Source: a virus. Taken from it: 35,279 nucleotides of DNA. Under the pieces are notes generated by a model. That model searched no databases. It saw only the letters and a program-made list of their open reading frames with translations, and had not been told where the DNA came from. Each line of letters begins with the position of its first letter. The first letter of the stretch is position 1. This document shows, one piece after another, positions 1,662 through 26,733 of this stretch. The DNA lies in the IMG/VR virus record IMGVR_UViG_3300029567_000036, positions 1-35,279 of that record; one strand, 5' to 3'. Position numbers and translations under genes: made by a program.

Positions 1662-1764
1662 ATCACAACAAAATAAAAAAAGCCCTACCCTGCGCCAACA
1701 GGATAGAGCCGATAAGCAGGATATGCAGTACATAACCCACCCAACATTGGATATTGTACCACAT

Positions 1765-1795
1765 CCCTGCCGATAAATCAAGCAGGGCATTTTTG
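1765..1795 (+). terminator. Rho-independent terminator candidate after the MNT-HEPN gene
   Basis: Stem ccctgc (1765..1770) pairs with gcaggg (1782..1787), followed by catttttg. Confidence 0.45.
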
Positions 1796-1831
1796 CGCCC
1801 TTTTTTAAGTACAATCTATGGGAGTGGTACA

Positions 1832-3265
1832 ATGAAATATGCAGCGGCATATATCCGCGTAAGTGACGACCGGCAAGACGAGTACAGCCCGGACAGCCAG
1901 CTTAAACTCATTCGTGAGTACGCCGGCAGAAACGGCTACTGCGTGCCGGATGAATATGTATTCTATGACGATGGTATCTCCGGGCGTAGCGTAAAAAAGC
2001 GCAAGGCGTTCAATGATATGATCGCCTTTGCAAAAAGCAAGGAGCACCCATTCCAGGCAATTCTTGTATGGAAATTCAGCCGGTTTGCTCGGAACCAAGA
2101 AGAAAGCATCGTATATAAGTCCATGCTGCGGCGCATCGGCGTGTCGGTGATCTCCATATCCGAGACCATAGACGACTCGCCCTTTGCCCCGCTGATTGAA
2201 CGCATTATAGAATTCATGGACGAGTATTACAGCACACGCCTATCCCAGGAAGTGACTCGGGGCATGACGGAAAAGGCAAGCCGTGGCGAAGCCATGAGCG
2301 CCGGTGCCTTTGGCTATGACCTCCAAAACAAGGTATTCACACCCAACGAGGACGCACCCACCGTGCGGTACATCTTTAATGCTTTTCTGTCCGGCAAAGG
2401 CTACCGCAAGATTGCTATGGAGCTGAACGCCATGGGCGTAAAAACCTACCGAGGCAACCCACCGGACAACCGCTTTGTGGAGTATATACTGATGAACCCG
2501 GTGTATGCAGGTAAAATCCGCTGGAGCACAGACGGCAGAGCCTCCAGAGACCGGTACAAAGGCGATAACAGCAAGGTTATGTATGTGGACGGCAAGCACC
2601 AGCCGATCATAGATCAAGACACATTCGATCAAGTACAGGAGAAGATCATGGAACAGAAAAGACGGTATGGCAAATGGCAGCGCAAGGAGCAGCCTGTCAC
2701 ATTCATGCTGAAAGGACTTTTGCGCTGCGACACCTGCGGTGCCACGCTGACCTATATTGCCGCCAGGGATCCCGCCGTTCAATGCCACAACTACGCCCGG
2801 GGCAAGTGCAAGGTGTCCCACTACCTATCCATACGAAAGGCCAACGCTGCGGTGATTGCTGCCATAGAAAAATCTCTGAAGACCCTGGAATTCAATGTGC
2901 TTCCAAAGGAGCAGCTGCAAAATGAAGTGGTAGACTACTCGCTACTCATTCGCAAGGAAGAAGAAAAGATCAAGCGGGCCAGTGATGCCTACGATGCCGG
3001 GTATGACACACTGGAGGAATACGGCCGCAAAAAGCGAGCATTTCAAAACAAGATTGAAGCGCTCAAAGCCGAGCAGGTCAAGGTCGAGAAGTCACAGAGC
3101 GGCGAAATTCCGCCCCAGTTCGTCCAGCAAGCCAGTTTTGTGCTCAATTTGATAAAGTCTCCGGATACAGCGGAAAGCGTCAAGAACGAAGCCCTGCGCT
3201 CCATTGTAGATCACATCACATTCAAAAAGCCGGACAACACACTGGAGATATTCTACTATATTTGA
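1832..3265 (+). CDS. Large serine recombinase (phage integrase)
   Basis: MKYAAAYIRVSDDRQ (catalytic Ser) with a resolvase-like N-terminus, a recombinase domain, a Cys-rich zinc ribbon (CDTCGATL...CHNYARGKC) and a C-terminal coiled coil. ATG 1832 has RBS GGAG at 1821; the track's start at 1754 is an upstream extension. Confidence 0.9.
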   Translation: MKYAAAYIRVSDDRQDEYSPDSQLKLIREYAGRNGYCVPDEYVFYDDGISGRSVKKRKAFNDMIAFAKSKEHPFQAILVWKFSRFARNQEESIVYKSMLRRIGVSVISISETIDDSPFAPLIERIIEFMDEYYSTRLSQEVTRGMTEKASRGEAMSAGAFGYDLQNKVFTPNEDAPTVRYIFNAFLSGKGYRKIAMELNAMGVKTYRGNPPDNRFVEYILMNPVYAGKIRWSTDGRASRDRYKGDNSKVMYVDGKHQPIIDQDTFDQVQEKIMEQKRRYGKWQRKEQPVTFMLKGLLRCDTCGATLTYIAARDPAVQCHNYARGKCKVSHYLSIRKANAAVIAAIEKSLKTLEFNVLPKEQLQNEVVDYSLLIRKEEEKIKRASDAYDAGYDTLEEYGRKKRAFQNKIEALKAEQVKVEKSQSGEIPPQFVQQASFVLNLIKSPDTAESVKNEALRSIVDHITFKKPDNTLEIFYYI

Positions 3266-5296: not shown

Positions 5297-5471
5297 CGGT
5301 CTCACCCCCTTGCAGGGCGTTAATCTCCGCACGGTACGCAGCCCGCTGCCGGCGGATCGGCGCATATTCATCTTCGGACAGCGCACCGTCCGTGTACTTC
5401 AGACAGAGGTAATCCGTCTCCGCCAGCTCGGACTTCAAAAACGCAATGCGGCTTTCTGTCTCCACATTCAT
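5289..5471 (-). CDS. Hypothetical 60-aa protein downstream of the tail fibre
   Basis: ORF in the late-gene orientation whose start overlaps the fibre stop (ATGA-type coupling). Confidence 0.5.
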
Positions 5472-7204
5472 TTTGCCACCCCCAATATTTCAACTTGCGT
5501 GCCTGCGCCAATTGTTCGTCCATTGGTTGGGAAACCTAACGACTTAATCGCACCGTGAGCCTCCACATCCTTGAATATGTTGAAATTAACCTTGTTGCTA
5601 AGCCATATACAGCCTTTTTCCATGACATCAGCTGGGTTGAAGCCACTTGACTTATCTGATTTGTTTTGCATTACACGCACCATGTCAGCAGTCAATTCAA
5701 CCTCTGCAACAACGAAGCTTCCCTTATCTTTTGCAACATCGAAACGAAACGCATTGGGTATGTAAGTCTCAGATGTGTACGAATTCAAATATACAGTTTG
5801 GTCTCCGGCACTACTATTGGTAGTAGTTCCAACGCTAACCATGCGCAACTTAATTTTTCTGCACGGCTTAGACAAAATCCAGTTTTGCTTGTCCGTTGTA
5901 TCGGCGTCAAATGTCTTGGAAAACACAGGCTCCCAGGTCTCAGCAGAACCGGTTTTATCCGCAGTCAGCAGGGTGACCGTCCCGCTGCCGTCTGTCGCTC
6001 TGCGTAAGACGGCCAGGCCAAAATCAGATTGTGTGACTGTGGCACACTCCACGCCATCTTCTTCAAAGAAAGACACCAGCGCCCCACTGCGCAGGACTAA
6101 GGCATGATCGCCGCTTTTGGCATCGTCAGCGTGCAATGTAATGGTGCCATGTGTGTCATAATCCACATTCAGCACATAGGGGCAGAACTCAGAGATGTTC
6201 CACCATTCGTGTAAGGTGACCGCATCGCCTGACGCTTGTGCCAGAGTGCCCACCCAGCTGGTAAGTTTGGCTTGCAACTCATCACTTAACAGGTTCTCTG
6301 TGACCGTTTTTAGAGCCAGCCGCATGCCGGTTATTGTACGCGGCTTAATATGCTTGCCCTCCACAGACAGGGACTCGATCTTATCGCCGGTAACGGCACC
6401 GTCCGCCAGCTTGTTCGTAGTCACAGAGCTATCCGGGATCTCCACCTTGGCGGCAATGTCGGTTTTGTCCGTGTCCGTCAGCACATAGTCCTTGCCATCA
6501 GCGCCTGCAGGACCAGGATCACCTTTTGGTCCTTGTTCGCCCTGGGGGCCTTGCTCACCTTGTGGGCCTTGCGGGCCCTCTGCGCCCGGCTCCCCTTGGG
6601 AACCCTGTGGGCCCACTGCACCATCTTTTCCCGGTTCGCCCTGCGGTCCTCGCTCTCCATCTTTACCAGGAGCGCCCTGGGGACCCGTGTCACCCTTTGG
6701 GCCTTTAATGTTCACCGGTTCCGGGTTGTCCTTCCCGCCGTCATTGGTCCAGCTGATCTCGCCCGCTGCGGACACGCTGGGCGTATAAGTGGTGCCATTC
6801 ACACCCTTACCAATATCCTTGAGCAGTGCCTGCACCTTGGCGTAATAAGACTCCAACTCCGTTGGATCCGGTGCGTCCGTCTCCACAGCTGCCGGGTCAT
6901 AAGAACCAGGGCGCACATAAAACACGCACGGCTCCGGGCTTATACGCTGCACCAACTGCTCGCCATCCACGGCATAGCCGTAAACGCCCAGGCGGCACAT
7001 TCCCTCTTGCAGCGGCGGGGCGAAGCATTGTCCATCCACCACAGTGGCAAACTGGCCGTTCATGCACACCCGCACGACCAGATCGGCGTATGCCGGGTCC
7101 AGCTCTACCACACAGCGAATCTGATTGACATTCTCAGCTGTCACCGGGTCTTTGTTTTGTAAGATCACCGCCTGCTGGGTGACCTTAATATTTAATGTCT
7201 GCAT
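5468..7204 (-). CDS. Tail fibre / baseplate-associated protein with a collagen-like region
   Basis: RBS AGGAGG. 24 uninterrupted G-X-Y triplets (aa 168..239). The C-terminal part is visibly more AT-rich. Confidence 0.75.
6488..6703 (-). repeat. Collagen-like G-X-Y coding repeat (24 triplets)
   Basis: [72 protein letters not shown]. Confidence 0.9.
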
Positions 7205-7294
7205 AAAATCCTCCTTTTTGACATAAAAAAACAGCGTGTCTTAGCCGCCGTTTGCAGTTGACTGCAATTTGTATTTTACATGAGGCTCACCTCC

Positions 7295-7326
7295 AATAAA
7301 AAGGAGCAGGAATAGACACCTGCTCC
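7295..7326 (-). terminator. Rho-independent terminator ending the antirepressor operon
   Basis: On the minus strand, ggagcagg, loop tgtctatt, cctgctcc, followed by tttttatt. Confidence 0.7.
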
Positions 7327-7332
7327 AACTGA

Positions 7333-7566
7333 CTATTTTATTTTGCGTTCACGCACGGCTCGTGCGCCACTCAAAAAGCCCATTATGTAAACGCTCAAAA
7401 GCGATCGGCTGCATCTCCACTGCACATCTTCTGAACAATCGGAACGATATGCATCACGGTAACAAAGTCTCGCCCTTTCCAAAATGTCCACCGTTGCTAT
7501 ATCCGACAGGCGTATAGCCTCATCGATGTTGCAACGACAACTAAAATTCTCATGTGATTCCATCAT
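7333..7566 (-). CDS. Hypothetical 77-aa Cys-rich protein, coupled to the antirepressor
   Basis: RBS AGGAGG overlaps the ant stop codon (tgcataTAGGAGGccATGATG). Confidence 0.55.
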   Translation of the reverse strand: MMESHENFSCRCNIDEAIRLSDIATVDILERARLCYRDAYRSDCSEDVQWRCSRSLLSVYIMGFLSGARAVRERKIK

Positions 7567-7572
7567 GGCCTC

Positions 7573-8262
7573 CTATATGCATAACAGACGGAAGGTTTCT
7601 CTCCCCTTGGGTGTTACCAATGTTTGAGTGCCTGCCCATTTTGTTTTATCATTATAGGATTCTTTGATTTCAAACAATCCTGCATTCTTGTCCTCATACG
7701 GCATTAAGCGCCCGCGTTTATCACGGTATAAATATTTTTTGTCTAACAGGAATGCAATAAAGGTCTTAGGACCGATTCCCAGTTGCTTTGCGGTTTCCCG
7801 AAAATTCGTAAGCAAATTACGACTTACCAATTCATCAAAATATTCTGCCTTTGGTTGCATTGTTTGTACCGCCACCGTAAGTTTTGAATTCTCCTGCATA
7901 GCCGTTCTTAAATTCTGCTCCGCCATACGCAGCGCCCGGGACATTACCATTTCAGGCGTATTCCAAGCATTTTCCAGCTCGATAAAATACAAGCGTGCCT
8001 GTTTACCTCTATCATTGCGCTGGAGCATACAGAGCTCCTTAGCCATTTCAATGGTCAACTGCGCATCATTTCCCGGCCTACCGCGCTCGCCGGTATTTTC
8101 GCACAAAAATGTGCGAAAATCATTGCCCTCCACAAATCCATATTCGCACATTCTTGGAAACCAGTTGCGAAATGAGCTTTTCACTTCCAAGAATTTATGC
8201 AATTCTCTTGCCGACACCGTTGGCCTATCGCCATCGTAATTCACTTTGATTAGCTCGTTCAT
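7573..8262 (-). CDS. Phage antirepressor (AntA/AntB-like N-terminus plus KilAC/ANT-like C-terminus)
   Basis: MNELIKVNYDGDRPTVSARELHKFLEVKSSFRNWFPRMCEYGFVEGNDF... is typical of antirepressor N-domains. The C-terminal part contains AEYFDELV...LTNFRETAKQLGIGPKTFIAFL. ATG 8262 has RBS AAGGAG; the track's start at 8382 is an extension. Confidence 0.75.
   Translation of the reverse strand: MNELIKVNYDGDRPTVSARELHKFLEVKSSFRNWFPRMCEYGFVEGNDFRTFLCENTGERGRPGNDAQLTIEMAKELCMLQRNDRGKQARLYFIELENAWNTPEMVMSRALRMAEQNLRTAMQENSKLTVAVQTMQPKAEYFDELVSRNLLTNFRETAKQLGIGPKTFIAFLLDKKYLYRDKRGRLMPYEDKNAGLFEIKESYNDKTKWAGTQTLVTPKGRETFRLLCI
8095..8120. promoter_or_regulatory. 26-bp palindrome P1 (11-bp arms, aaaa centre) inside the ant coding sequence
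   Basis: attttcgcaca-aaaa-tgtgcgaaaat, a perfect dyad, encoding NDFRTFLCEN on the minus strand. Confidence 0.8.
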
Positions 8263-8426
8263 AAACAAAAACTCCTTACAAAATAATCTTGCAAGAGGCC
8301 CTCGTATTTGGTATAATAAATCTATCAGTGGAGAACCTCTGCTGCTGTTTAGGGATTTGCTTGTGCTTGGTCGTGTAAGCAAATCTCTTTTTTCTTTTCA
8401 AAAAACGCCACATAATGCCGTTTCCT

Positions 8427-8452
8427 ATTTTCGCCCAAAAATGGGCGAAAAT
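8427..8452. promoter_or_regulatory. 26-bp palindrome P2, sibling of P1 with a compensatory change
   Basis: attttcgccca-aaaa-tgggcgaaaat. It differs from P1 only at the two symmetric positions 9 and 18 (A/T to C/G). It lies in the gap between the small HTH gene and ant. Confidence 0.8.
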
Positions 8453-8458
8453 ACCGAT

Positions 8459-8638
8459 TCACATTTTTTGATCATCCAGTGCTGTAATTGCGTCCATAAC
8501 TTTTTGCGTTTCTTCTGCCGAAAAATCATAACGCAGTTTTTTAGAAAAAGTGCAATCGCTCATGCCCAGATAATCCGCGACTTGCCACAGTCGCAAACCA
8601 GAACGAATAATTGTACTTTTGATTTCTGACCCCTTCAT
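8459..8638 (-). CDS. Small HTH DNA-binding protein (59 aa), first gene of the ant operon (Arc/Cro-like position)
   Basis: MKGSEIKSTIIRSGLRLWQVADYLGMSDCTFSKKLR contains a helix-turn-helix. RBS AGGAGG lies 7 nt before ATG 8638. The track's start at 8671 would lie upstream of the predicted transcription start. Confidence 0.65.
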   Translation of the reverse strand: MKGSEIKSTIIRSGLRLWQVADYLGMSDCTFSKKLRYDFSAEETQKVMDAITALDDQKM

Positions 8639-8669
8639 TTTCGCACCTCCTTTCGCATTTGATGTCATC

Positions 8670-8698
8670 ATAATATCATTTTCGCAGTATTATGTCAA
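8670..8698 (-). promoter_or_regulatory. Near-consensus promoter of the ant operon
   Basis: On the minus strand, TTGACA (plus 8693..8698), a 17-nt spacer, then TATTAT (plus 8670..8675). The spacer contains the half-site attttcgcag (8678..8687). Confidence 0.6.
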
Positions 8699-8733
8699 CA
8701 ACATCAGCAAAATATTTTTTTGTCGTTTTATTG

Positions 8734-8762
8734 TTGACATATTCCCTCTTATGTGCTATTTT
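8734..8762 (+). promoter_or_regulatory. Divergent promoter for the XRE regulator
   Basis: TTGACA at 8734..8739, a 17-nt spacer ending in TGc, then TATTTT at 8757..8762. Its -35 block ttgttgacat is the exact reverse complement of atgtcaacaa (8692..8701) in the opposing promoter. Confidence 0.55.
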
Positions 8763-8801
8763 TAATTTAGACACAAAAACAATTATATTGAGGTGTTGAA
8801 A

Positions 8802-9344
8802 ATGACGAATATTAACTACAAGGAAGTTGGCAATAGATTAAAACGACTGATTGCAGAAAAAAATATGAACCAAATTGAGTTTGCAAAGCTCTGTAATGTG
8901 AGCGAAGCTACTTTGCGATTGCATATTCGCGGTGAAATAAAGAAAGGGATCAACTGTGATTGCTTATATGCATATAGCCGGGAACTCAATGTTTCAATGG
9001 AGTATCTACTTACAGGCGTTGAAACAAAGAAGCCCATTGCAATAAAGTATGTAGACATTATCAATGCAATCAACCTCTTGATCGATGCATTTGGGACCGA
9101 AATTATCAGCCCATGCAGTGAGGAGTTTGCGGACTGTTTATACATTGCAGATGAGGCTATCCAAACCTACTTGGAAAAAATCAGGCTTAACGGACATATT
9201 CGCGAAGATCTTGAAAGAATCAACGAGGGTGAAACATACAACAAAATGCGTAGAGAGTGGGCAGGATTATCTTGCAACAGATATAGTCACACTACAAAGA
9301 AGATCATCCCCTACGATGACGATGACGACAACTTGCCCTTCTAA
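8802..9344 (+). CDS. XRE-family HTH regulator (180 aa) with an SSB-tip-like acidic C-terminus (Mnt-like position)
   Basis: The N-terminus is LKRLIAEKNMNQIEFAKLCNVSEATLRLHIRGE (HTH_XRE). RBS GAGGTG lies 6 nt before ATG 8802. The C-terminus is ...IIPYDDDDDNLPF. Confidence 0.75.
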   Translation: MTNINYKEVGNRLKRLIAEKNMNQIEFAKLCNVSEATLRLHIRGEIKKGINCDCLYAYSRELNVSMEYLLTGVETKKPIAIKYVDIINAINLLIDAFGTEIISPCSEEFADCLYIADEAIQTYLEKIRLNGHIREDLERINEGETYNKMRREWAGLSCNRYSHTTKKIIPYDDDDDNLPF

Positions 9345-9352
9345 GTCAAAAA

Positions 9353-9391
9353 GGCTTTCGTCTACAAACAGACGAGGGCCTTTTTGTTTTT
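9353..9391 (+). terminator. Rho-independent terminator after the XRE gene
   Basis: ggctttcgtct, loop acaaac, agacgagggcc (two G-U pairs), followed by tttttgttttt. Confidence 0.7.
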
Positions 9392-9392
9392 C

Positions 9393-9421
9393 TTGCAATC
9401 TGCGGGGAAGTGTGGTATGGT
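9393..9421 (+). promoter_or_regulatory. Promoter candidate for the Thr-rich membrane protein
   Basis: TTGCAA at 9393..9398, a 17-nt spacer with TGg, then TATGGT at 9416..9421. Confidence 0.4.
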
Positions 9422-9444
9422 GGGGAGTGAAAGGAGAGATGGAG

Positions 9445-9966
9445 ATGAAGTCTAAGGCCAAAGTGTGGATCCTTGTTGTGACCGTTGTAATGGCGGTGGG
9501 GGTCGGTATCGGTGTGTGGGTGCACTATGATCGAGTGCATGATCAGGAGACAGCCAGTCTGGTAGATCACGCTGTATCCAGTGCACTGGCTGGTGTTACT
9601 ACACAGCCCACAGAGACCACTACAGAACCGGCAGCCACAGAGGCGACCGCAACCACAACAACTACAAAGCCCACAACCACTAAGAAGAAAAAGAAGAAGC
9701 ATACTACCACGCAACCGCAAGTAGTGTATCGCACCGAAAGGAATGGCACAGTAGCCCCAGCCGCAATAAGAGAAACAACCGAATCAACGGTGCCGAAGCG
9801 TCCTGCTGACGCGCACTTTGATCCCATACCTTCTGACGATGGATATTACTGGGACACAGCTTCTTCTCGAGACGATCCGTTAGAAGAAATATATGTCGAT
9901 GAAAGCGGCAGGCATTTCTATTTCAAAAAGGGCGATAAATCCACTCCAAGAATATATATTGACTAA
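9445..9966 (+). CDS. Single-pass membrane-anchored protein with a Thr/Pro-rich linker and a KKKKKK run
   Basis: MKSKAKVWILVVTVVMAVGVGIGVWV is a signal-anchor. The linker is TTQPTETTTEPAATEATATTTTTKPTTTKKKKKKHTTT. RBS AAGGAG lies 8 nt upstream. The track's start at 9085 overlaps the XRE gene and is rejected. Confidence 0.6.
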   Translation: MKSKAKVWILVVTVVMAVGVGIGVWVHYDRVHDQETASLVDHAVSSALAGVTTQPTETTTEPAATEATATTTTTKPTTTKKKKKKHTTTQPQVVYRTERNGTVAPAAIRETTESTVPKRPADAHFDPIPSDDGYYWDTASSRDDPLEEIYVDESGRHFYFKKGDKSTPRIYID

Positions 9967-9973
9967 TAACTCT

Positions 9974-10006
9974 AAAGCGGCTGTTCCAGTGCGGAGCAGC
10001 CGCTTT
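9974..10006. terminator. Bidirectional terminator hairpin between convergent genes
   Basis: aaagcggctg (9974..9983) pairs with cagccgcttt (9997..10006). Confidence 0.6.
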
Positions 10007-10011
10007 GCTGT

Positions 10012-12558
10012 TTATTGCAATTTTGCTTTCAGCGCGTCCACTGCGGCTTGCAAAGCGTCCAGTTGCTTCTTTTGATCTTGGATCAACTTAAGCATTGCCG
10101 GTATCATGATACGATCTTGCCAGCTTTCAGGTCTCCCTTCACTGTCATAGATCACTGCGTTGGGGTAATGCTTGTCCAGATCCTCTGCAATAACGCCGAT
10201 CTGCGTCCCGCTGACCAATTCGTTGTCCTTGTATTCTGGCTTGTAATTGTACTGGCACACCTGTACATCGTAAAGACCGTTTGGATCCAGCACAGCGTCT
10301 TCTACCGGTTTGATATTCTCTTTGTATCGTTTTGATGAGTTTGCGGTTGTAATAACGCCGCTTGTGTTTACAACCAGTGGAATGGTTCCGCTTGAAGATT
10401 TAAAACTCAGTCTAATATCGTCTTGTACCGTCAGTTTGCCTCTGATTGTCGTGGCGTTATCAATCCATATACTCTTCCCGACAAGGTATAAAACATTATC
10501 GCCACCATTCGCACTAAGCACAAACCCGCCTTTTGATTCAATCGTATCACGGTACGCAGTGCTTCCGCTAAGCGTCCAACTCACTTTAGACAGTACAAAT
10601 CTGGTTTCAACCGAATCTTTCGATCCCGCTTGTATACACAAGTTGCCATTCTGCTGCATTCTTAAGCAAATATCTCCGCCTTCTAAATATGTTTTGGCTC
10701 CGTGCTCATACTGACCGTATCCAATTACAAGGCTGTTACCACCAGATGCAGCATTAATGATTTCATATCCGGCAAGATCATATATTTTTTTGTAGAATTG
10801 TACATCGGCATCAAATTTGGTTTTCCCTTCCACCGATAGGGCCCCGCTCACATCTACCGAACCATTGCATACCATATCGCCGCCCATCGTTACATACCAT
10901 GTACCAGTATATGAACCGTTGCTGTTCTTTTTTTGTGCAGAAAACACCCAAGAGCCTTTGGTAGTTGGCTTTTGAATGTATGCACGATAACTACCCAAAT
11001 CCGCATACAGTTCTCGGTCGGTGATGTTCCACCCGGCGATCGTGCCTTTATCCGCAAGGATCTCAATACCGGAGAGTCTACCGGCTGAAATGTCCGTAGC
11101 ATTCAGGTAATACTGGTTGGTTTTTTTGTTGTAGTACACCGCAAAGTCCTTAAATGGGCCTTGCAGTCCGGTGGTAGAAACAGCCATGCCGTTCTTATTC
11201 AGCAGCAGGCAGCGTCCTTTGGTCTTGCCCTCCGCTGCCGGGTACTCTCCGATATAAAGCGCGTCTGACACACCATCGCCGTCCCGGTCGATCAAAGCAG
11301 CGTAACCACCAACTGCGTTCGTGATAGAATCCGTGGCGTCCTGAATGCGCTGCGCCAACGGCGCTGTGACCTGCTGCATAGCCTTAGAGATCATGCGGGA
11401 AAGAATGCTTCCGGCAGAGCTGCCCTCCTGTTCTGAACGGGCATGGGCGGCCACATCCATAGTGACGGAGCCATCATAATCATACTCCACACCCATCAAG
11501 GGGATATGGTGATCGCCGGTATCGTCCCGGTAAGTGATCACATCAAAACTATCCAGCGCCGGATTGGCCGTGAGCAATGTCATACTTCCCGGTCGGTACT
11601 GTATGCCCAGGTCAAATACAGTCTCACCCTGGTCGCCATCATCTATGTAGATCATATCGGATACAGCGTTAAATACTTTTTCCGCTTGGGCCTGGGTGGT
11701 GATCAGCGGATTGTCGAAATACAGCACCTCGCTGTTGACCGACAGACTATCTGGTGCAAGAATATTCTTATTCCCATTGTTGCAACTGATCCCCAGGTAG
11801 GTTTTGTCCGTCTCTGCCAGAGAGACCTCTGTGACTGTGTCGTCTGTCACCGTGTATTCTGCCGTACCATCATATACCTGGGCGAAAGTATCTACTCGCA
11901 ACTTGCCCTCTCGGTCAAAGACGGCAGCACAGCCGCAGAACCCAGCCACATAACCGATGGCATCATTCACATTATAGGCAGTGACCTGCTGCTTGCCGTC
12001 CTCGTCTGTTTCCGTACCGCAGAGCAAAGAAACATCTACCGTGCCAAAGCCGGAGACCTTGCTCTCCACGCCGGGAGCCAACTCAAAGTTACCCTGGCGT
12101 GCCAGGTCTTTTAAGATTGCCAAAGGGGTCTGCTGACCGCTGATGGCGGCAGAATACGGCATAGAAAGATCATACATGTGGTCGTACATTTCCAAAGTGG
12201 TACATTCGCCGGACCGAGTGACCTTTTCCGGATAAAACACGCCCATTGGCACCCACTCCACTGCACCGTTGACCATACAGCCAAAGTACACCACGGTTTT
12301 CTGCCCGCGAAGCACGGCACCGGCGGGCACAGCCCACAAAACGCAGTTACACCCACAGGAGTAGGATTTTGCCAGCGCGTAATCATCATGGCTGATACTG
12401 CGGTCAATATTCAGCTCCATAATGTTATTTTGCTCATTTGGGCTTGTAGGATCCGTCTCATCGTTGTAGCCAAAAATGAAATTGCCACATTTAACCTTCA
12501 CATAGATCCGTTCACCGTTTTTGATGGCTTGGTTAAACGCTGTGCTTGTCTTGTACAT
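10012..12558 (-). CDS. Tal-like tail tip/fibre protein with a C-terminal Peptidase_S74 intramolecular chaperone domain
   Basis: The gene follows the tape measure and a small tail protein. The C-terminal 109 aa, NSSKRYKENIKP...GVIAEDL...IPAMLKLIQDQKKQLDALQ, match the self-cleaving chaperone domain of endosialidase/tail-spike proteins. ATG 12558 has RBS AAGGAG. Confidence 0.75.
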   Translation of the reverse strand: MYKTSTAFNQAIKNGERIYVKVKCGNFIFGYNDETDPTSPNEQNNIMELNIDRSISHDDYALAKSYSCGCNCVLWAVPAGAVLRGQKTVVYFGCMVNGAVEWVPMGVFYPEKVTRSGECTTLEMYDHMYDLSMPYSAAISGQQTPLAILKDLARQGNFELAPGVESKVSGFGTVDVSLLCGTETDEDGKQQVTAYNVNDAIGYVAGFCGCAAVFDREGKLRVDTFAQVYDGTAEYTVTDDTVTEVSLAETDKTYLGISCNNGNKNILAPDSLSVNSEVLYFDNPLITTQAQAEKVFNAVSDMIYIDDGDQGETVFDLGIQYRPGSMTLLTANPALDSFDVITYRDDTGDHHIPLMGVEYDYDGSVTMDVAAHARSEQEGSSAGSILSRMISKAMQQVTAPLAQRIQDATDSITNAVGGYAALIDRDGDGVSDALYIGEYPAAEGKTKGRCLLLNKNGMAVSTTGLQGPFKDFAVYYNKKTNQYYLNATDISAGRLSGIEILADKGTIAGWNITDRELYADLGSYRAYIQKPTTKGSWVFSAQKKNSNGSYTGTWYVTMGGDMVCNGSVDVSGALSVEGKTKFDADVQFYKKIYDLAGYEIINAASGGNSLVIGYGQYEHGAKTYLEGGDICLRMQQNGNLCIQAGSKDSVETRFVLSKVSWTLSGSTAYRDTIESKGGFVLSANGGDNVLYLVGKSIWIDNATTIRGKLTVQDDIRLSFKSSSGTIPLVVNTSGVITTANSSKRYKENIKPVEDAVLDPNGLYDVQVCQYNYKPEYKDNELVSGTQIGVIAEDLDKHYPNAVIYDSEGRPESWQDRIMIPAMLKLIQDQKKQLDALQAAVDALKAKLQ

Positions 12559-12569
12559 AAAATACTCCT

Positions 12570-12938
12570 TTAGCGCTCGATGGCGTCTACTTTGTAGTTG
12601 ATGAAATACCGGCAATTCCTGGCACCGGAATAGGCTGTCCAACTGGGCGTACCAAAGTAGCAGTTGAACGAAAACACCGTATTCCCGGAAGTATCCTCCA
12701 GTTTAATAGAATGCCAGGGCTTACCCGCATTGTTGATCACGCCGTTTAGCTTGTCCAATTCCGCCCGGGTCAAGGGCGGAAAGGACAACTGCCTTGTTTT
12801 TTTGACCTGAACGATACTGCCGTTCATATAAGCTGACTTGGAGCGGCCCGTGTTAGAGGACCACACCTTTTCATCTGAACAGGATATGGCATTGAATGAT
12901 GGGTTTGGCATTTTTGTGCCGTCAATATATAGTGGCAT
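12570..12938 (-). CDS. Small tail protein in the distal-tail position (function assigned by position only)
   Basis: Lies between the tape measure and the Tal-like gene. RBS AGGAGGG. Confidence 0.4.
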   Translation of the reverse strand: MPLYIDGTKMPNPSFNAISCSDEKVWSSNTGRSKSAYMNGSIVQVKKTRQLSFPPLTRAELDKLNGVINNAGKPWHSIKLEDTSGNTVFSFNCYFGTPSWTAYSGARNCRYFINYKVDAIER

Positions 12939-26319: not shown

Positions 26320-26733
26320 TTAATTTTCGCATTCCAGCATATCCAGGGACTGCGGATGAATGCGAGAGACCAGGTGATTGTATGTAATATCTTCATCTAC
26401 AGCGATCTTCTCAAAAGTGTCACCGTTCAAATACCGCCGACGCAACACACGCCGGTGCAACGGACTGCGCACCTGCTCAATAGCAGTCTCAATTTCTGCC
26501 CGCTGCAACAGAGCAAGCTGGACTTGTTGGTCCAGCTTCTCTTTCAGTTCTATAATGCGATCTACCGTCAAGGTAAAATCTGCCCGCTGCCCGCCTCCCG
26601 GTGTGGGAGAGAGGGAAGCCGTGATCTTTTGCGCCCGGCTGTTCAGTTCTTCGATCTCCTGTTGTGTAATCTCAACCTCCGCCCAGCACTCCCGATAGCG
26701 TTGCAGCCATTCCTTCTTTTCGTTGTTCGTCAT
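26320..26733 (-). CDS. Putative late-gene transcriptional regulator (sigma-70 region-4-like; DUF1492/ArpU/RinA-like)
   Basis: Lies just upstream of the packaging genes. The C-terminal RRVLRRRYLNGDTFEKIAVDEDITYNHLVSRI resembles a region-4 HTH. RBS AGGAGG. Confidence 0.55.
   Translation of the reverse strand: MTNNEKKEWLQRYRECWAEVEITQQEIEELNSRAQKITASLSPTPGGGQRADFTLTVDRIIELKEKLDQQVQLALLQRAEIETAIEQVRSPLHRRVLRRRYLNGDTFEKIAVDEDITYNHLVSRIHPQSLDMLECEN

Follow-up and report, generated by a model that had tools for sequence, protein, structure and literature searches.

What do two nearly identical perfect palindromes do when one lies inside a phage antirepressor gene and the other just upstream of it? 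The question is raised by a viral DNA of 35,279 nucleotides (nt), IMG/VR record IMGVR_UViG_3300029567_000036, positions 1 to 35,279, the whole of which we call the window. Here, an operon on the minus strand encodes a 59-amino-acid (aa) protein and, behind it, the antirepressor Ant. Palindrome P1 is located within ant and palindrome P2 in the gap between the two genes. A first-pass annotation had offered two roles for them: operators for either of two helix-turn-helix (HTH) proteins of 59 and 180 aa encoded in the same island, including roadblock sites inside the operon, or hairpins in the ant messenger RNA (mRNA). As judged from homologous genes, P1 is this phage's member of an inverted repeat that is intrinsic to AntA genes and in which the complementarity of the arms, not their sequence, is conserved; by the same comparison, P2 is a rare, transposed and lineage-specific copy of the P1 hairpin. 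Both palindromes are genuine and carry meaning, though not that of operators.

Two perfect palindromes that differ only at mirror positions

The positions and sequences of P1, P2 and the associated half-sites were all verified. P1 (8095-8120, minus strand; ATTTTCGCACAAAAATGTGCGAAAAT) is a perfect 26-bp palindrome with 11-bp arms and a 4-nt centre, and it encodes Ant residues D48-N56 (DFRTFLCEN). P2 is intergenic: it lies 5 nt past the 59-aa gene's stop codon, with 163 nt between it and the ant ATG. It had been described as a 26-bp palindrome with an 11-bp stem; the palindrome stands, but its arms are really 12 bp long, making a perfect 28-bp palindrome (8426-8453, minus strand) around the core ATTTTCGCCCAAAAATGGGCGAAAAT (8427-8452). 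The two elements are the longest perfect palindromes of the 35-kb window, and they alone match the 26-mer pattern in the window when up to three mismatches are allowed (0 matches expected). As reported earlier, they differ from each other at mirror positions only (8103/8112 in P1 versus 8435/8444 in P2), where A..T in one corresponds to C..G in the other. The interpretation of this difference as maintained complementarity is borne out by the family-wide covariation of the arms described below. A 4-bp outward extension, CGGT...ACCG, is not conserved in relatives.

The genes concerned are all on the minus strand, so that the loop would read UUUU in the transcript. Predicted RNA hairpin energies were -14.6 kcal/mol for P1 (z = -5.4) and -17.9 kcal/mol for P2 (z about -5.5 for the two taken together); the corresponding DNA hairpins were predicted at -11.5 and -12.7 kcal/mol. 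In agreement with the first-pass annotation, neither palindrome is a standard terminator: a T-run precedes the stem and an A-run follows it on either strand, and a terminator scan called neither. A search of Rfam gave no match at P1, at P2 or at the homologous hairpins of seven other phages at E <= 1.

The sequence of P1 is echoed a short distance away. A near copy on the plus strand, ATATTCGCACATT (8140-8152), which includes a half-site-like ATATTCGCAC (8140-8149) missed in the first-pass annotation, falls in the M-C-E-Y codons, a conserved part of ant. In the transcript, 12 of its 13 positions are complementary to the P1 5' arm plus two loop bases. The M-C-E-Y codons (8140-8156) repeat the P1 3' arm (8104-8120; TGTGCGAATAT versus TGTGCGAAAAT), and the P1 5' arm can therefore pair with either one. 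The alternative fold of this 68-nt stretch, in which the 5' arm pairs with the M-C-E-Y codons, has a predicted energy of -21.2 kcal/mol and is lineage-specific. This arrangement suggests that the particular sequence of P1 was templated from the neighbouring conserved codons.

In two independent assemblies, IMGVR_UViG_3300029518_000049 (L001/L004) and ERZ780137 NODE-204 (L116/L118), the contig breaks a few bases after P1, with a gap of 10 bases in place of 2 bases in the window. Possibly the palindrome interferes with assembly or sequencing; alternatively, the gap may represent masked stretches.

An inverted repeat at a fixed place in AntA genes

Our first set of relatives comprised 80 viral contigs encoding Ant homologues. 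The region of interest is a segment of about 90 nt between the conserved YGF and MAKE motifs, delimited by hmmalign anchors; in the window it is the variable loop of the AntA domain (8047-8133, minus strand), and throughout the gene family the repeat, where present, falls inside it. We found a strong stem in this segment in 166 of 212 distinct AntA open reading frames (ORFs), or about 78%. Stems occurred there at a density of 8.6 per kb, 34-fold above the 0.26 per kb seen elsewhere in these ORFs. The repeat has arms of 9 to 12 bp and an A/T-rich centre of 2 to 8 nt, and it follows directly on a conserved D-F/Y. In ant homologues with 58 to 65% identity, different perfect palindromes occupy the same codon position (for example, CTATTCGACATTTTTGTCGAATAG, TTTTACTCAATTTTGAGTAAAA and CGTTTTCTAAAATTTTAGAAAACG). 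GenBank phages have their own versions at the same place, among them ACTTTAGCTCA-TTTT-TGAGCAAAAGT in Streptococcus, GTTTTGAAC-AAAAAA-GTTCAAAAC in Lactococcus, CTTTTTCGGAA-AA-TTCCGAAAAAG in Moraxella and TTTTCGCCAA-AT-TTGGCGAAAA in TL-2011c, a relative of Escherichia coli Shiga toxin (Stx) phages. The repeat is likewise found there in phages of Clostridia, Paenibacillus, Fusobacterium, Clostridium perfringens and Vibrio, and four further scans brought the collection to about 110 distinct hairpin variants.

The peptides encoded by the repeat vary in length as well as in sequence (RTFLC, CSFLS, STFLS, YSILS, SPNLAK, TQKRVT, EQKSS and others). Since they differ so widely, the protein sequence is not what dictates the repeat. 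Consistent with this, the mean best-stem score was 7.8, against 4.75 under synonymous-codon randomisation; of 142 sequences, 75% scored above 95 or more of their 100 randomised versions. Javan465, Mcat2 and Redbud, all available as complete genomes, each have a single copy of the ant hairpin, unaccompanied by clustered half-sites.

Literature searches for a hairpin or palindrome within ant or AntA genes returned nothing relevant. The 24B_1/d_ant micro-RNA of Stx phages was considered and set aside; as far as the text describing it shows, it is unrelated to the AntA hairpin. A sequence search for solved structures found none for Ant or AntA and none for the 59-aa protein.

Two further observations concern the surroundings of the repeat. 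In TL-2011c (L103:115-200), a full-length match to the Rfam family sRNA-Xcc1 (RF02221; 74.5 bits, gathering score 53) shares the strand of the AntA-type antirepressor gene and precedes it by 40 nt. In Streptococcus-type AntA genes (L205-L284), the first Gly codon of the T-G-G-R-P motif behind the hairpin is GGA in 52 of 58 cases; it creates a Shine-Dalgarno-like GGAGG five to six bases past the stem, and the neighbouring codons vary freely.

Covariation of the arms and freezing of synonymous sites

Covariation was measured on 28 distinct sequences aligned in a fixed codon register and chosen without regard to pairing. Pairing was found in 92% of the cells, compared with 77% in shuffled alignments, and 38 cells had changed on both sides where 10.5 were expected, a number that none of 500 shuffles reached. 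When the partner was slid by 1 to 3 columns as a control, pairing stood at about 40%. Five pairs showed changes on both sides, and three pairs each occurred as three or four Watson-Crick types. RNAalifold independently returned the same stem with one tolerated internal mismatch position; the internal position at columns 8/23 tolerates any mismatch. Complementarity is thus kept at every arm position while the sequence changes completely, which is the signature of intra-strand pairing and not of protein contacts.

The codons of the repeat are also constrained beyond what the protein requires. Among 65 distinct Streptococcus-type genes, relative synonymous entropy was about 0.5 to 1.0 at most other domain codons scored, and it was 0 to 0.26 at seven of the eight hairpin codons scored, the exception being F47 (0.94). 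Individual codons were frozen or nearly so: GAC for Asp in 65/65 genes, TCA for Ser in 43/43, TTT for Phe in 40/40, TTG for Leu in 58/58, AAA for Lys in 40/40 and AGT for Ser in 57/58. The same dip in synonymous entropy recurs in the gut-Clostridia and enterobacterial groups. We regard this freezing of synonymous sites, read from aligned genes, as the strongest argument that the repeat has a function.

P2 as a lineage-specific copy of the P1 hairpin

A scan of 3 kb on either side of 43 distinct ant loci detected a second copy of the hairpin in the window lineage only, apart from a partial match with four mismatches at L020. Ten lineage members from viral and metagenome collections are 97 to 100% identical; P1 and P2 are invariant among them, at a divergence too low for this to mean much. 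Two haplotypes can be told apart in the lineage at 8672, 8685 and other sites, the second having the -10 box TATTAT changed to TATCAT together with G8685A, and one member (L114) combines parts of both by recombination. Relatives of the 59-aa gene are few, falling into only four protein clusters, and none outside the lineage has P2. In one of them (L088, 74% identical), the small gene is followed by an ant gene of the Bro-N type, with a different structured spacer and no P2.

The 26-mer was also found away from AntA genes. A relative with 70 to 95% amino-acid identity over the genes at 26.7 to 33.1 kb of the window (L106, from contig CAVIFY010000022.1) carries the exact P1 26-mer, in its A-T version and with 13-bp arms, in intergenic DNA (L106:4624-4653), 12 nt past the stop codon of a small Cys-rich ORF and about 80 nt before terS. 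The flanks T...A(A)GGAAAC are common to this element and P2. The comparison indicates that P2 and the L106 element are versions of a short portable intergenic element, the A-T/C-G change separating two homologous copies. In L106 the element is followed by a GC-rich hairpin and TATTT; the window has, at the equivalent place, an ArpU-like regulator gene (26320-26733) and then two TGTTATAGTAT repeats.

A further exact P1 26-mer, with 14-bp arms, lies 47 nt past a Bro-N/KilAC ant gene (L121:5547-5578). It is on the strand opposite to the neighbouring gene and reads ...EDFRTFLCENPGG...; it is probably the remnant of an AntA gene whose N-terminal domain was replaced. Across the three contexts the arms are thus extended to 12, 13 and 14 bp by different bases. 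We also considered P2 as the relic of a second AntA gene and rejected this, because in our reading the translation around P2 has no AntA similarity past the palindrome. A viral scan for the shared 3' flank yielded 97 stretches, and none of the 94 matches checked in newly fetched loci had the hairpin.

Some palindromes with the same outer arms occur in bacterial bins assigned to Faecousia (L107:4054-4079; L108:278-303 and 1281-1306). They have the form ATTTTCGC...GCGAAAAT followed by GCAAA(T)CGAATCCC. One bin (L108) contains a 50-nt unit twice, 1 kb apart, once within a palindrome with 18-bp arms; in the other (L107), the palindrome sits between a proline transfer RNA gene (tRNA-Pro) and a murT-like gene. 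A fragment of a tRNA or transfer-messenger RNA was rejected as their identity, as ARAGORN and Rfam reported only the neighbouring tRNA-Pro. Among unrelated matches to the pattern, the free mirror positions were complementary in 8/9.

Intra-strand pairing as the favoured explanation

With belief and doubt about equally balanced, we favour a model in which P1 and P2 act by intra-strand pairing; most likely, they form hairpins in the ant transcript through which the expression of the antirepressor is limited or processed. Both would be carried as RNA stem-loops on one transcript from the promoter at 8698..8670. P2, as a hairpin between the cistrons and ahead of ant, would then mark, stabilise or process the 3' end of the message for the small gene, and P1 would be an intragenic brake, or a determinant of processing or stability, that keeps Ant output low. 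The first-pass proposal of RNA hairpins in the ant mRNA is compatible with these findings.

We infer that the arms are probably kept complementary by template-switch-type mutation, in which one arm is copied from the other, together with purifying selection; this combination would also explain the clean A-T to C-G double change between P1 and P2. Template switching is a documented one-step route by which perfect stems are made and repaired (PMC8794818). Consistent with it are the double changes by which P2 differs from P1 and from the L106 element, as well as the 12/13 inverse copy of the M-C-E-Y codons.

Taken more broadly, there is perhaps an even chance that AntA genes of phages of Firmicutes, Proteobacteria and Fusobacteria share a previously undescribed cis-acting stem-loop or palindrome under strong nucleotide-level selection, needed for antirepressor control or for a DNA transaction at the gene, and duplicated as P2 and before the packaging genes of a relative. 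If this is true, the element would be a portable regulatory module recognised by something common to these phages.

Several findings weigh against hairpins in the transcript. Neither stem has a U-tract, so that no known termination mechanism applies to them, and about 20% of AntA genes lack a stem altogether. By our tally, single mismatches across the roughly 110 variants comprise about 13 G·T, 11 A·C and 27 of transversion type. Because this shows no wobble preference, strict Watson-Crick pairing or a requirement at the DNA level fits at least as well. The bases of the loop or centre are invariant within a group, which a pure structure model does not need. The 26-mer persists in perfect form, with longer arms, outside any ant mRNA (L106 and L121), and the clustering of half-sites described below, statistically real, is left without explanation. 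Of the features by which a conserved RNA within a coding sequence is recognised, covariation and synonymous constraint were found; greater tolerance of G·U than of A·C, and membership in an Rfam family, were not.

A possible requirement at the level of DNA

The main rival to RNA hairpins, in our estimate unlikely though worth serious weight, is that the repeat is required as DNA: as a hairpin or cruciform, or as a symmetric site for a gene-linked protein (for instance, in autoregulation by Ant), with P2 and the L106 copy as further sites. Such DNA elements within genes have precedents in the lambda origin inside gene O and the phiX174 origin inside gene A, to which we liken this possibility. 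Several of the points just made turn in its favour: all the pairs maintained are of the Watson-Crick type, and G·T mismatches do not outnumber those of A·C or transversion type. Extrusion is favoured by the centre, which is A/T-rich in every case and whose bases do not vary within a group. The sequence is particular to each Ant subfamily, down to an A·A mismatch conserved among Streptococcus species, and the 26-mer recurs both in intergenic DNA (L106) and beside another ant gene on the opposite strand (L121). A protein-binding site accounts less well for the arms: positions that a protein does not contact should lose their symmetry, yet the variable positions stay complementary through three or four pair types, and the arm extensions use different bases in each context. 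An operator of the repeated kind is also at odds with the three complete phages in which the element is single-copy.

The half-site cluster and the operator model

We consider it doubtful that P1, P2 and the ATTTTCGC half-sites are operators bound by the 59-aa or the 180-aa protein, with roadblocks or looping around the ant 5' region. The cluster itself is genuine. The first-pass annotation had claimed that ATTTTCGC is over-represented, and we counted nine copies in the window, where 1.67 were expected and none of 100 shuffles reached nine. Six of the nine exact 8-mers and eight of the twelve near 10-mers (ATTTTCGCAC) fall within 600 bp (8095-8687), a clustering that speaks for operators, as does the placement of individual copies. 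On the plus strand, ATTTTCGCAC (8637-8646; the half-site ATTTTCGCA at 8637-8645) overlaps the start codon of the 59-aa gene and the spacer between its ribosome-binding site (RBS) and ATG. Also on the plus strand, ATTTTCGCAG (8678-8687; ATTTTCGCA at 8678-8686) lies inside the 17-nt spacer of the TTGACA-17-TATTAT promoter. The additional TTTCGCA at 8651-8657 was confirmed, and an 11-nt direct repeat, TCATTTTCGCA, links the 8637 copy with 8674-8685, 40 bp apart. The structural model gives the 59-aa protein an XRE/C-protein-like fold, and such proteins bind palindromes. Remote operators within downstream genes are known in temperate phages, as with O_D of TP901-1 and O_R3 of phi105.

The proposal fails on comparison with relatives whose regulators should recognise the same DNA. 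The small proteins of L088, L089, L091 and L093 share TFSKKLRYDFS, which spans the predicted third helix, and L088 also has an identical SDCTFSKKLRYDFS and a nearly identical repressor HTH (about 80% by our count over residues 22-72). All four lack P2 and any ATTTTCGC or GCGAAAAT, and the homologous RBS spacer of L088 reads GATAAAAT. As to the conservation and covariation that the first-pass annotation had proposed to check in homologous islands, the hairpin covaries across AntA genes, and ATTTTCGC is missing from these four loci.

Within the window lineage itself, the promoter copy is not conserved among close relatives, as G8685A is present in five of ten near-identical members (L006, L114, L119, L120 and L122), and the start-codon copy in the RBS-ATG spacer carries C8643T in one (L006); P1 and P2 are intact throughout. 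The promoter-region copies at 8678 and 8637 are single half-sites in direct orientation and form no dyad. The position of P1 is dictated by the AntA family, whatever the neighbouring regulators, and not by this operon. Operators or roadblocks for the 59-aa or 180-aa HTH protein thus lose their footing, with the motif absent where the recognition helices match and the promoter half-site mutated in half of the lineage. An informal comparison by eye with host-regulator boxes (LexA/Cheo, CodY, Rex, cre and Spo0A) produced no convincing match.

Two unlikely alternatives: mutational by-products and an inversion switch

It is very unlikely that the palindromes have no function and are self-perpetuating by-products of template-switch correction in a tolerant protein loop, with P2 and the others arising by chance copying. 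The mechanism is documented (PMC8794818), and it would leave much of what is seen: arms that pair perfectly by Watson-Crick rules and show no wobble bias, clean double substitutions that separate P2 from both P1 and the L106 copy, arms extended by context-specific bases, a P1 5' arm that is a 12/13 inverse copy of nearby conserved codons, and an encoded peptide that is highly variable in sequence and length. In 65 distinct genes with other codons at or near saturation, synonymous sites are frozen, those of the unpaired centre among them, and mutational bias alone is insufficient to explain this. Nor does such a bias account for an element whose place stays the same in phages of three or more bacterial phyla, at a density 34-fold above that in the rest of the same ORFs.

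That an invertible 332-bp segment has P1 and P2 as its inverted repeats and forms a recombinase-driven ON/OFF switch for ant is barely credible: the palindromes are both inverted and direct repeats, flank the ant start, RBS and antisense promoter, and share the window with a large serine recombinase (1754-3265), but the hybrid arms expected from inversion (ATTTTCGCACA....TGGGCGAAAAT) were absent from viral, genome and metagenome scans with a matching pattern, every recovered lineage contig that has both palindromes shows the arrangement of the window, relatives do not conserve the 4-bp outer extension, the ant reading frame would be destroyed, and the recombinase is of the phage integrase type.

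Organisation of the ant island

The ant gene (7573-8262, minus strand) encodes a 229-aa antirepressor with an AntA domain followed by a KilAC domain (PF08346, 3.6e-24; PF03374, 2e-24) and matches PHROG 63, anti-repressor Ant (8e-52). The 59-aa gene (8459-8638, minus strand) is the first gene of the ant operon. Its product has no Pfam match; an AlphaFold2 model with four helices (predicted local distance difference test score, 92.6) suggests a Cro/XRE-type HTH fold, the best structural matches being XRE-type HTH proteins such as ClgR and restriction-modification C-proteins (template-modelling score about 0.65-0.70). The strong predicted operon promoter (8698..8670, minus strand; TTGACA-17-TATTAT with a TG extension) agrees with the consensus at 11/12 positions, and the order on its transcript is the 59-aa gene (8638..8459), P2 and ant (8262..7573), all on the minus strand.

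Divergent from the operon is a repressor-like gene for a 180-aa protein of the Cro/C1 HTH type (8802-9344, plus strand; promoter 8734-8762), which matches Pfam HTH_26 (1.2e-5) and PHROG transcriptional repressor families. Behind it, a hairpin at 9347-9392 with a 17-bp stem and T-runs after the stem on both strands forms a bidirectional terminator. Its weak, below-threshold match to Rfam ctRNA_p42d (25 bits versus 50), probably mere terminator likeness, was the sole Rfam match in window positions 7000 to 10000.

A candidate antisense small RNA of about 70 to 75 nt is predicted on the plus strand (8289-8398), opposite the ant 5' untranslated region. It would be transcribed from a TTGCAA-17-TATAAT promoter with TG (8289-8317; 10/12 consensus positions) and would form two hairpins, the terminator stem (8351-8388) being followed by a T-run. 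Its predicted fold has an energy of -25.5 kcal/mol (z = -4.0), and positions 8325-8405 are invariant among 10 relatives. P2 lies 30 to 40 nt past the terminator of this candidate. The ant RBS is outside it and is itself predicted to be sequestered in a hairpin.

The island as a whole (7333-9966) is placed between a collagen-repeat tail-fibre gene (5468-7204) and tail genes (10012 onward; 10012-12642). In L088 the same island, with its Bro-N-type ant, adjoins a Peptidase_S74 tail-fibre gene. Elsewhere in the window, the large serine recombinase gene (1754-3265, plus strand) matches PHROG integrase (6e-110), which identifies it as a phage integrase of the serine type.

Implications

Antirepressors decide when a prophage awakens, and their expression must be very low. 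Known controls to date comprise repressors, LexA and antisense RNAs, for example sar of P22 and c4 of phage P1. A hairpin in the coding sequence of most AntA-type genes would, if our favoured explanation is right, add a gene-intrinsic layer of control in phages of pathogens and gut commensals alike. It would also offer a clean natural example of co-evolution, within the same bases, between a nucleic-acid structure and a protein loop, and its strict Watson-Crick-only pattern bears on whether template switching or stepwise compensation keeps stems perfect. In annotation, a palindrome inside an ant gene should be taken as an operator only after the gene family has been checked.

Comparison with known systems

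The closest parallel to the island is immI of Salmonella phage P22, which comprises mnt, arc, ant and the antisense RNA sar and is a secondary immunity island among late and tail genes. By analogy, the architecture of the ant island is that of immI, built with non-homologous HTH regulators: a divergent repressor (here the 180-aa HTH protein), a small regulator first in the ant operon (here the 59-aa protein) and ant second, with an antisense RNA of roughly 70 nt encoded between these two genes (here the predicted RNA at 8289-8398) and the whole placed among late genes. Arc and Mnt are ribbon-helix-helix proteins, whereas both regulators here are of the XRE/Cro HTH type. Unlike sar, the candidate small RNA does not cover the ant RBS. 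To our knowledge, P22 has no described hairpin inside ant and no element like P2.

The layout also recalls TP901-1 O_D, phi105 O_R3 and lambda OL-OR looping, in that dyad DNA lies downstream of an early promoter, with one copy intragenic and motifs near the promoter. It departs from these operators in that the site keeps to one codon position of a gene family even where the immunity systems are unrelated, and in that its sequence is not conserved with the regulator and is absent where the recognition helices are the same.

Structured cis-elements within coding sequences can be detected by excess synonymous constraint, as in FRESCo-type signals (PMC4376164). Like these, the AntA repeat overlaps an ORF, shows a local synonymous collapse and covariation, and is inherited with its gene. 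In contrast to them and to the origin elements, it is a single short hairpin, not a set of iterons or a multi-helix RNA, and has no Rfam match. Coding palindromes with both arms translated have been described in mitochondrial genes of Nematomorpha (PMC6649704), and the AntA repeat is similarly an inverted repeat within a protein-coding gene whose two arms are translated. The Nematomorpha palindromes are many, long (up to 284 bp), located in conserved protein regions and confined to one clade, whereas the AntA repeat is one short repeat in one variable loop of one domain family, found in phages of several phyla. Template switching (PMC8794818) fits the double substitutions, the Watson-Crick-only arms, the arm extensions and the inverse copy of codons; it is a mutational route and not a function, and it leaves the frozen loop bases and the fixed position unexplained.

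P2 and the L106 element have their own counterparts. Between the early genes of T7 lie hairpins that are processed by RNase III. In T4-type phages, promoter-early stem-loop cassettes are repeated in intergenic DNA (PMC2839356). Unlike the T4 cassettes, the present element is known in only two intergenic copies and has no attached promoter; it resembles the stem-loops of both T4 and T7 in forming short hairpins just behind stop codons, at module boundaries of related phages.

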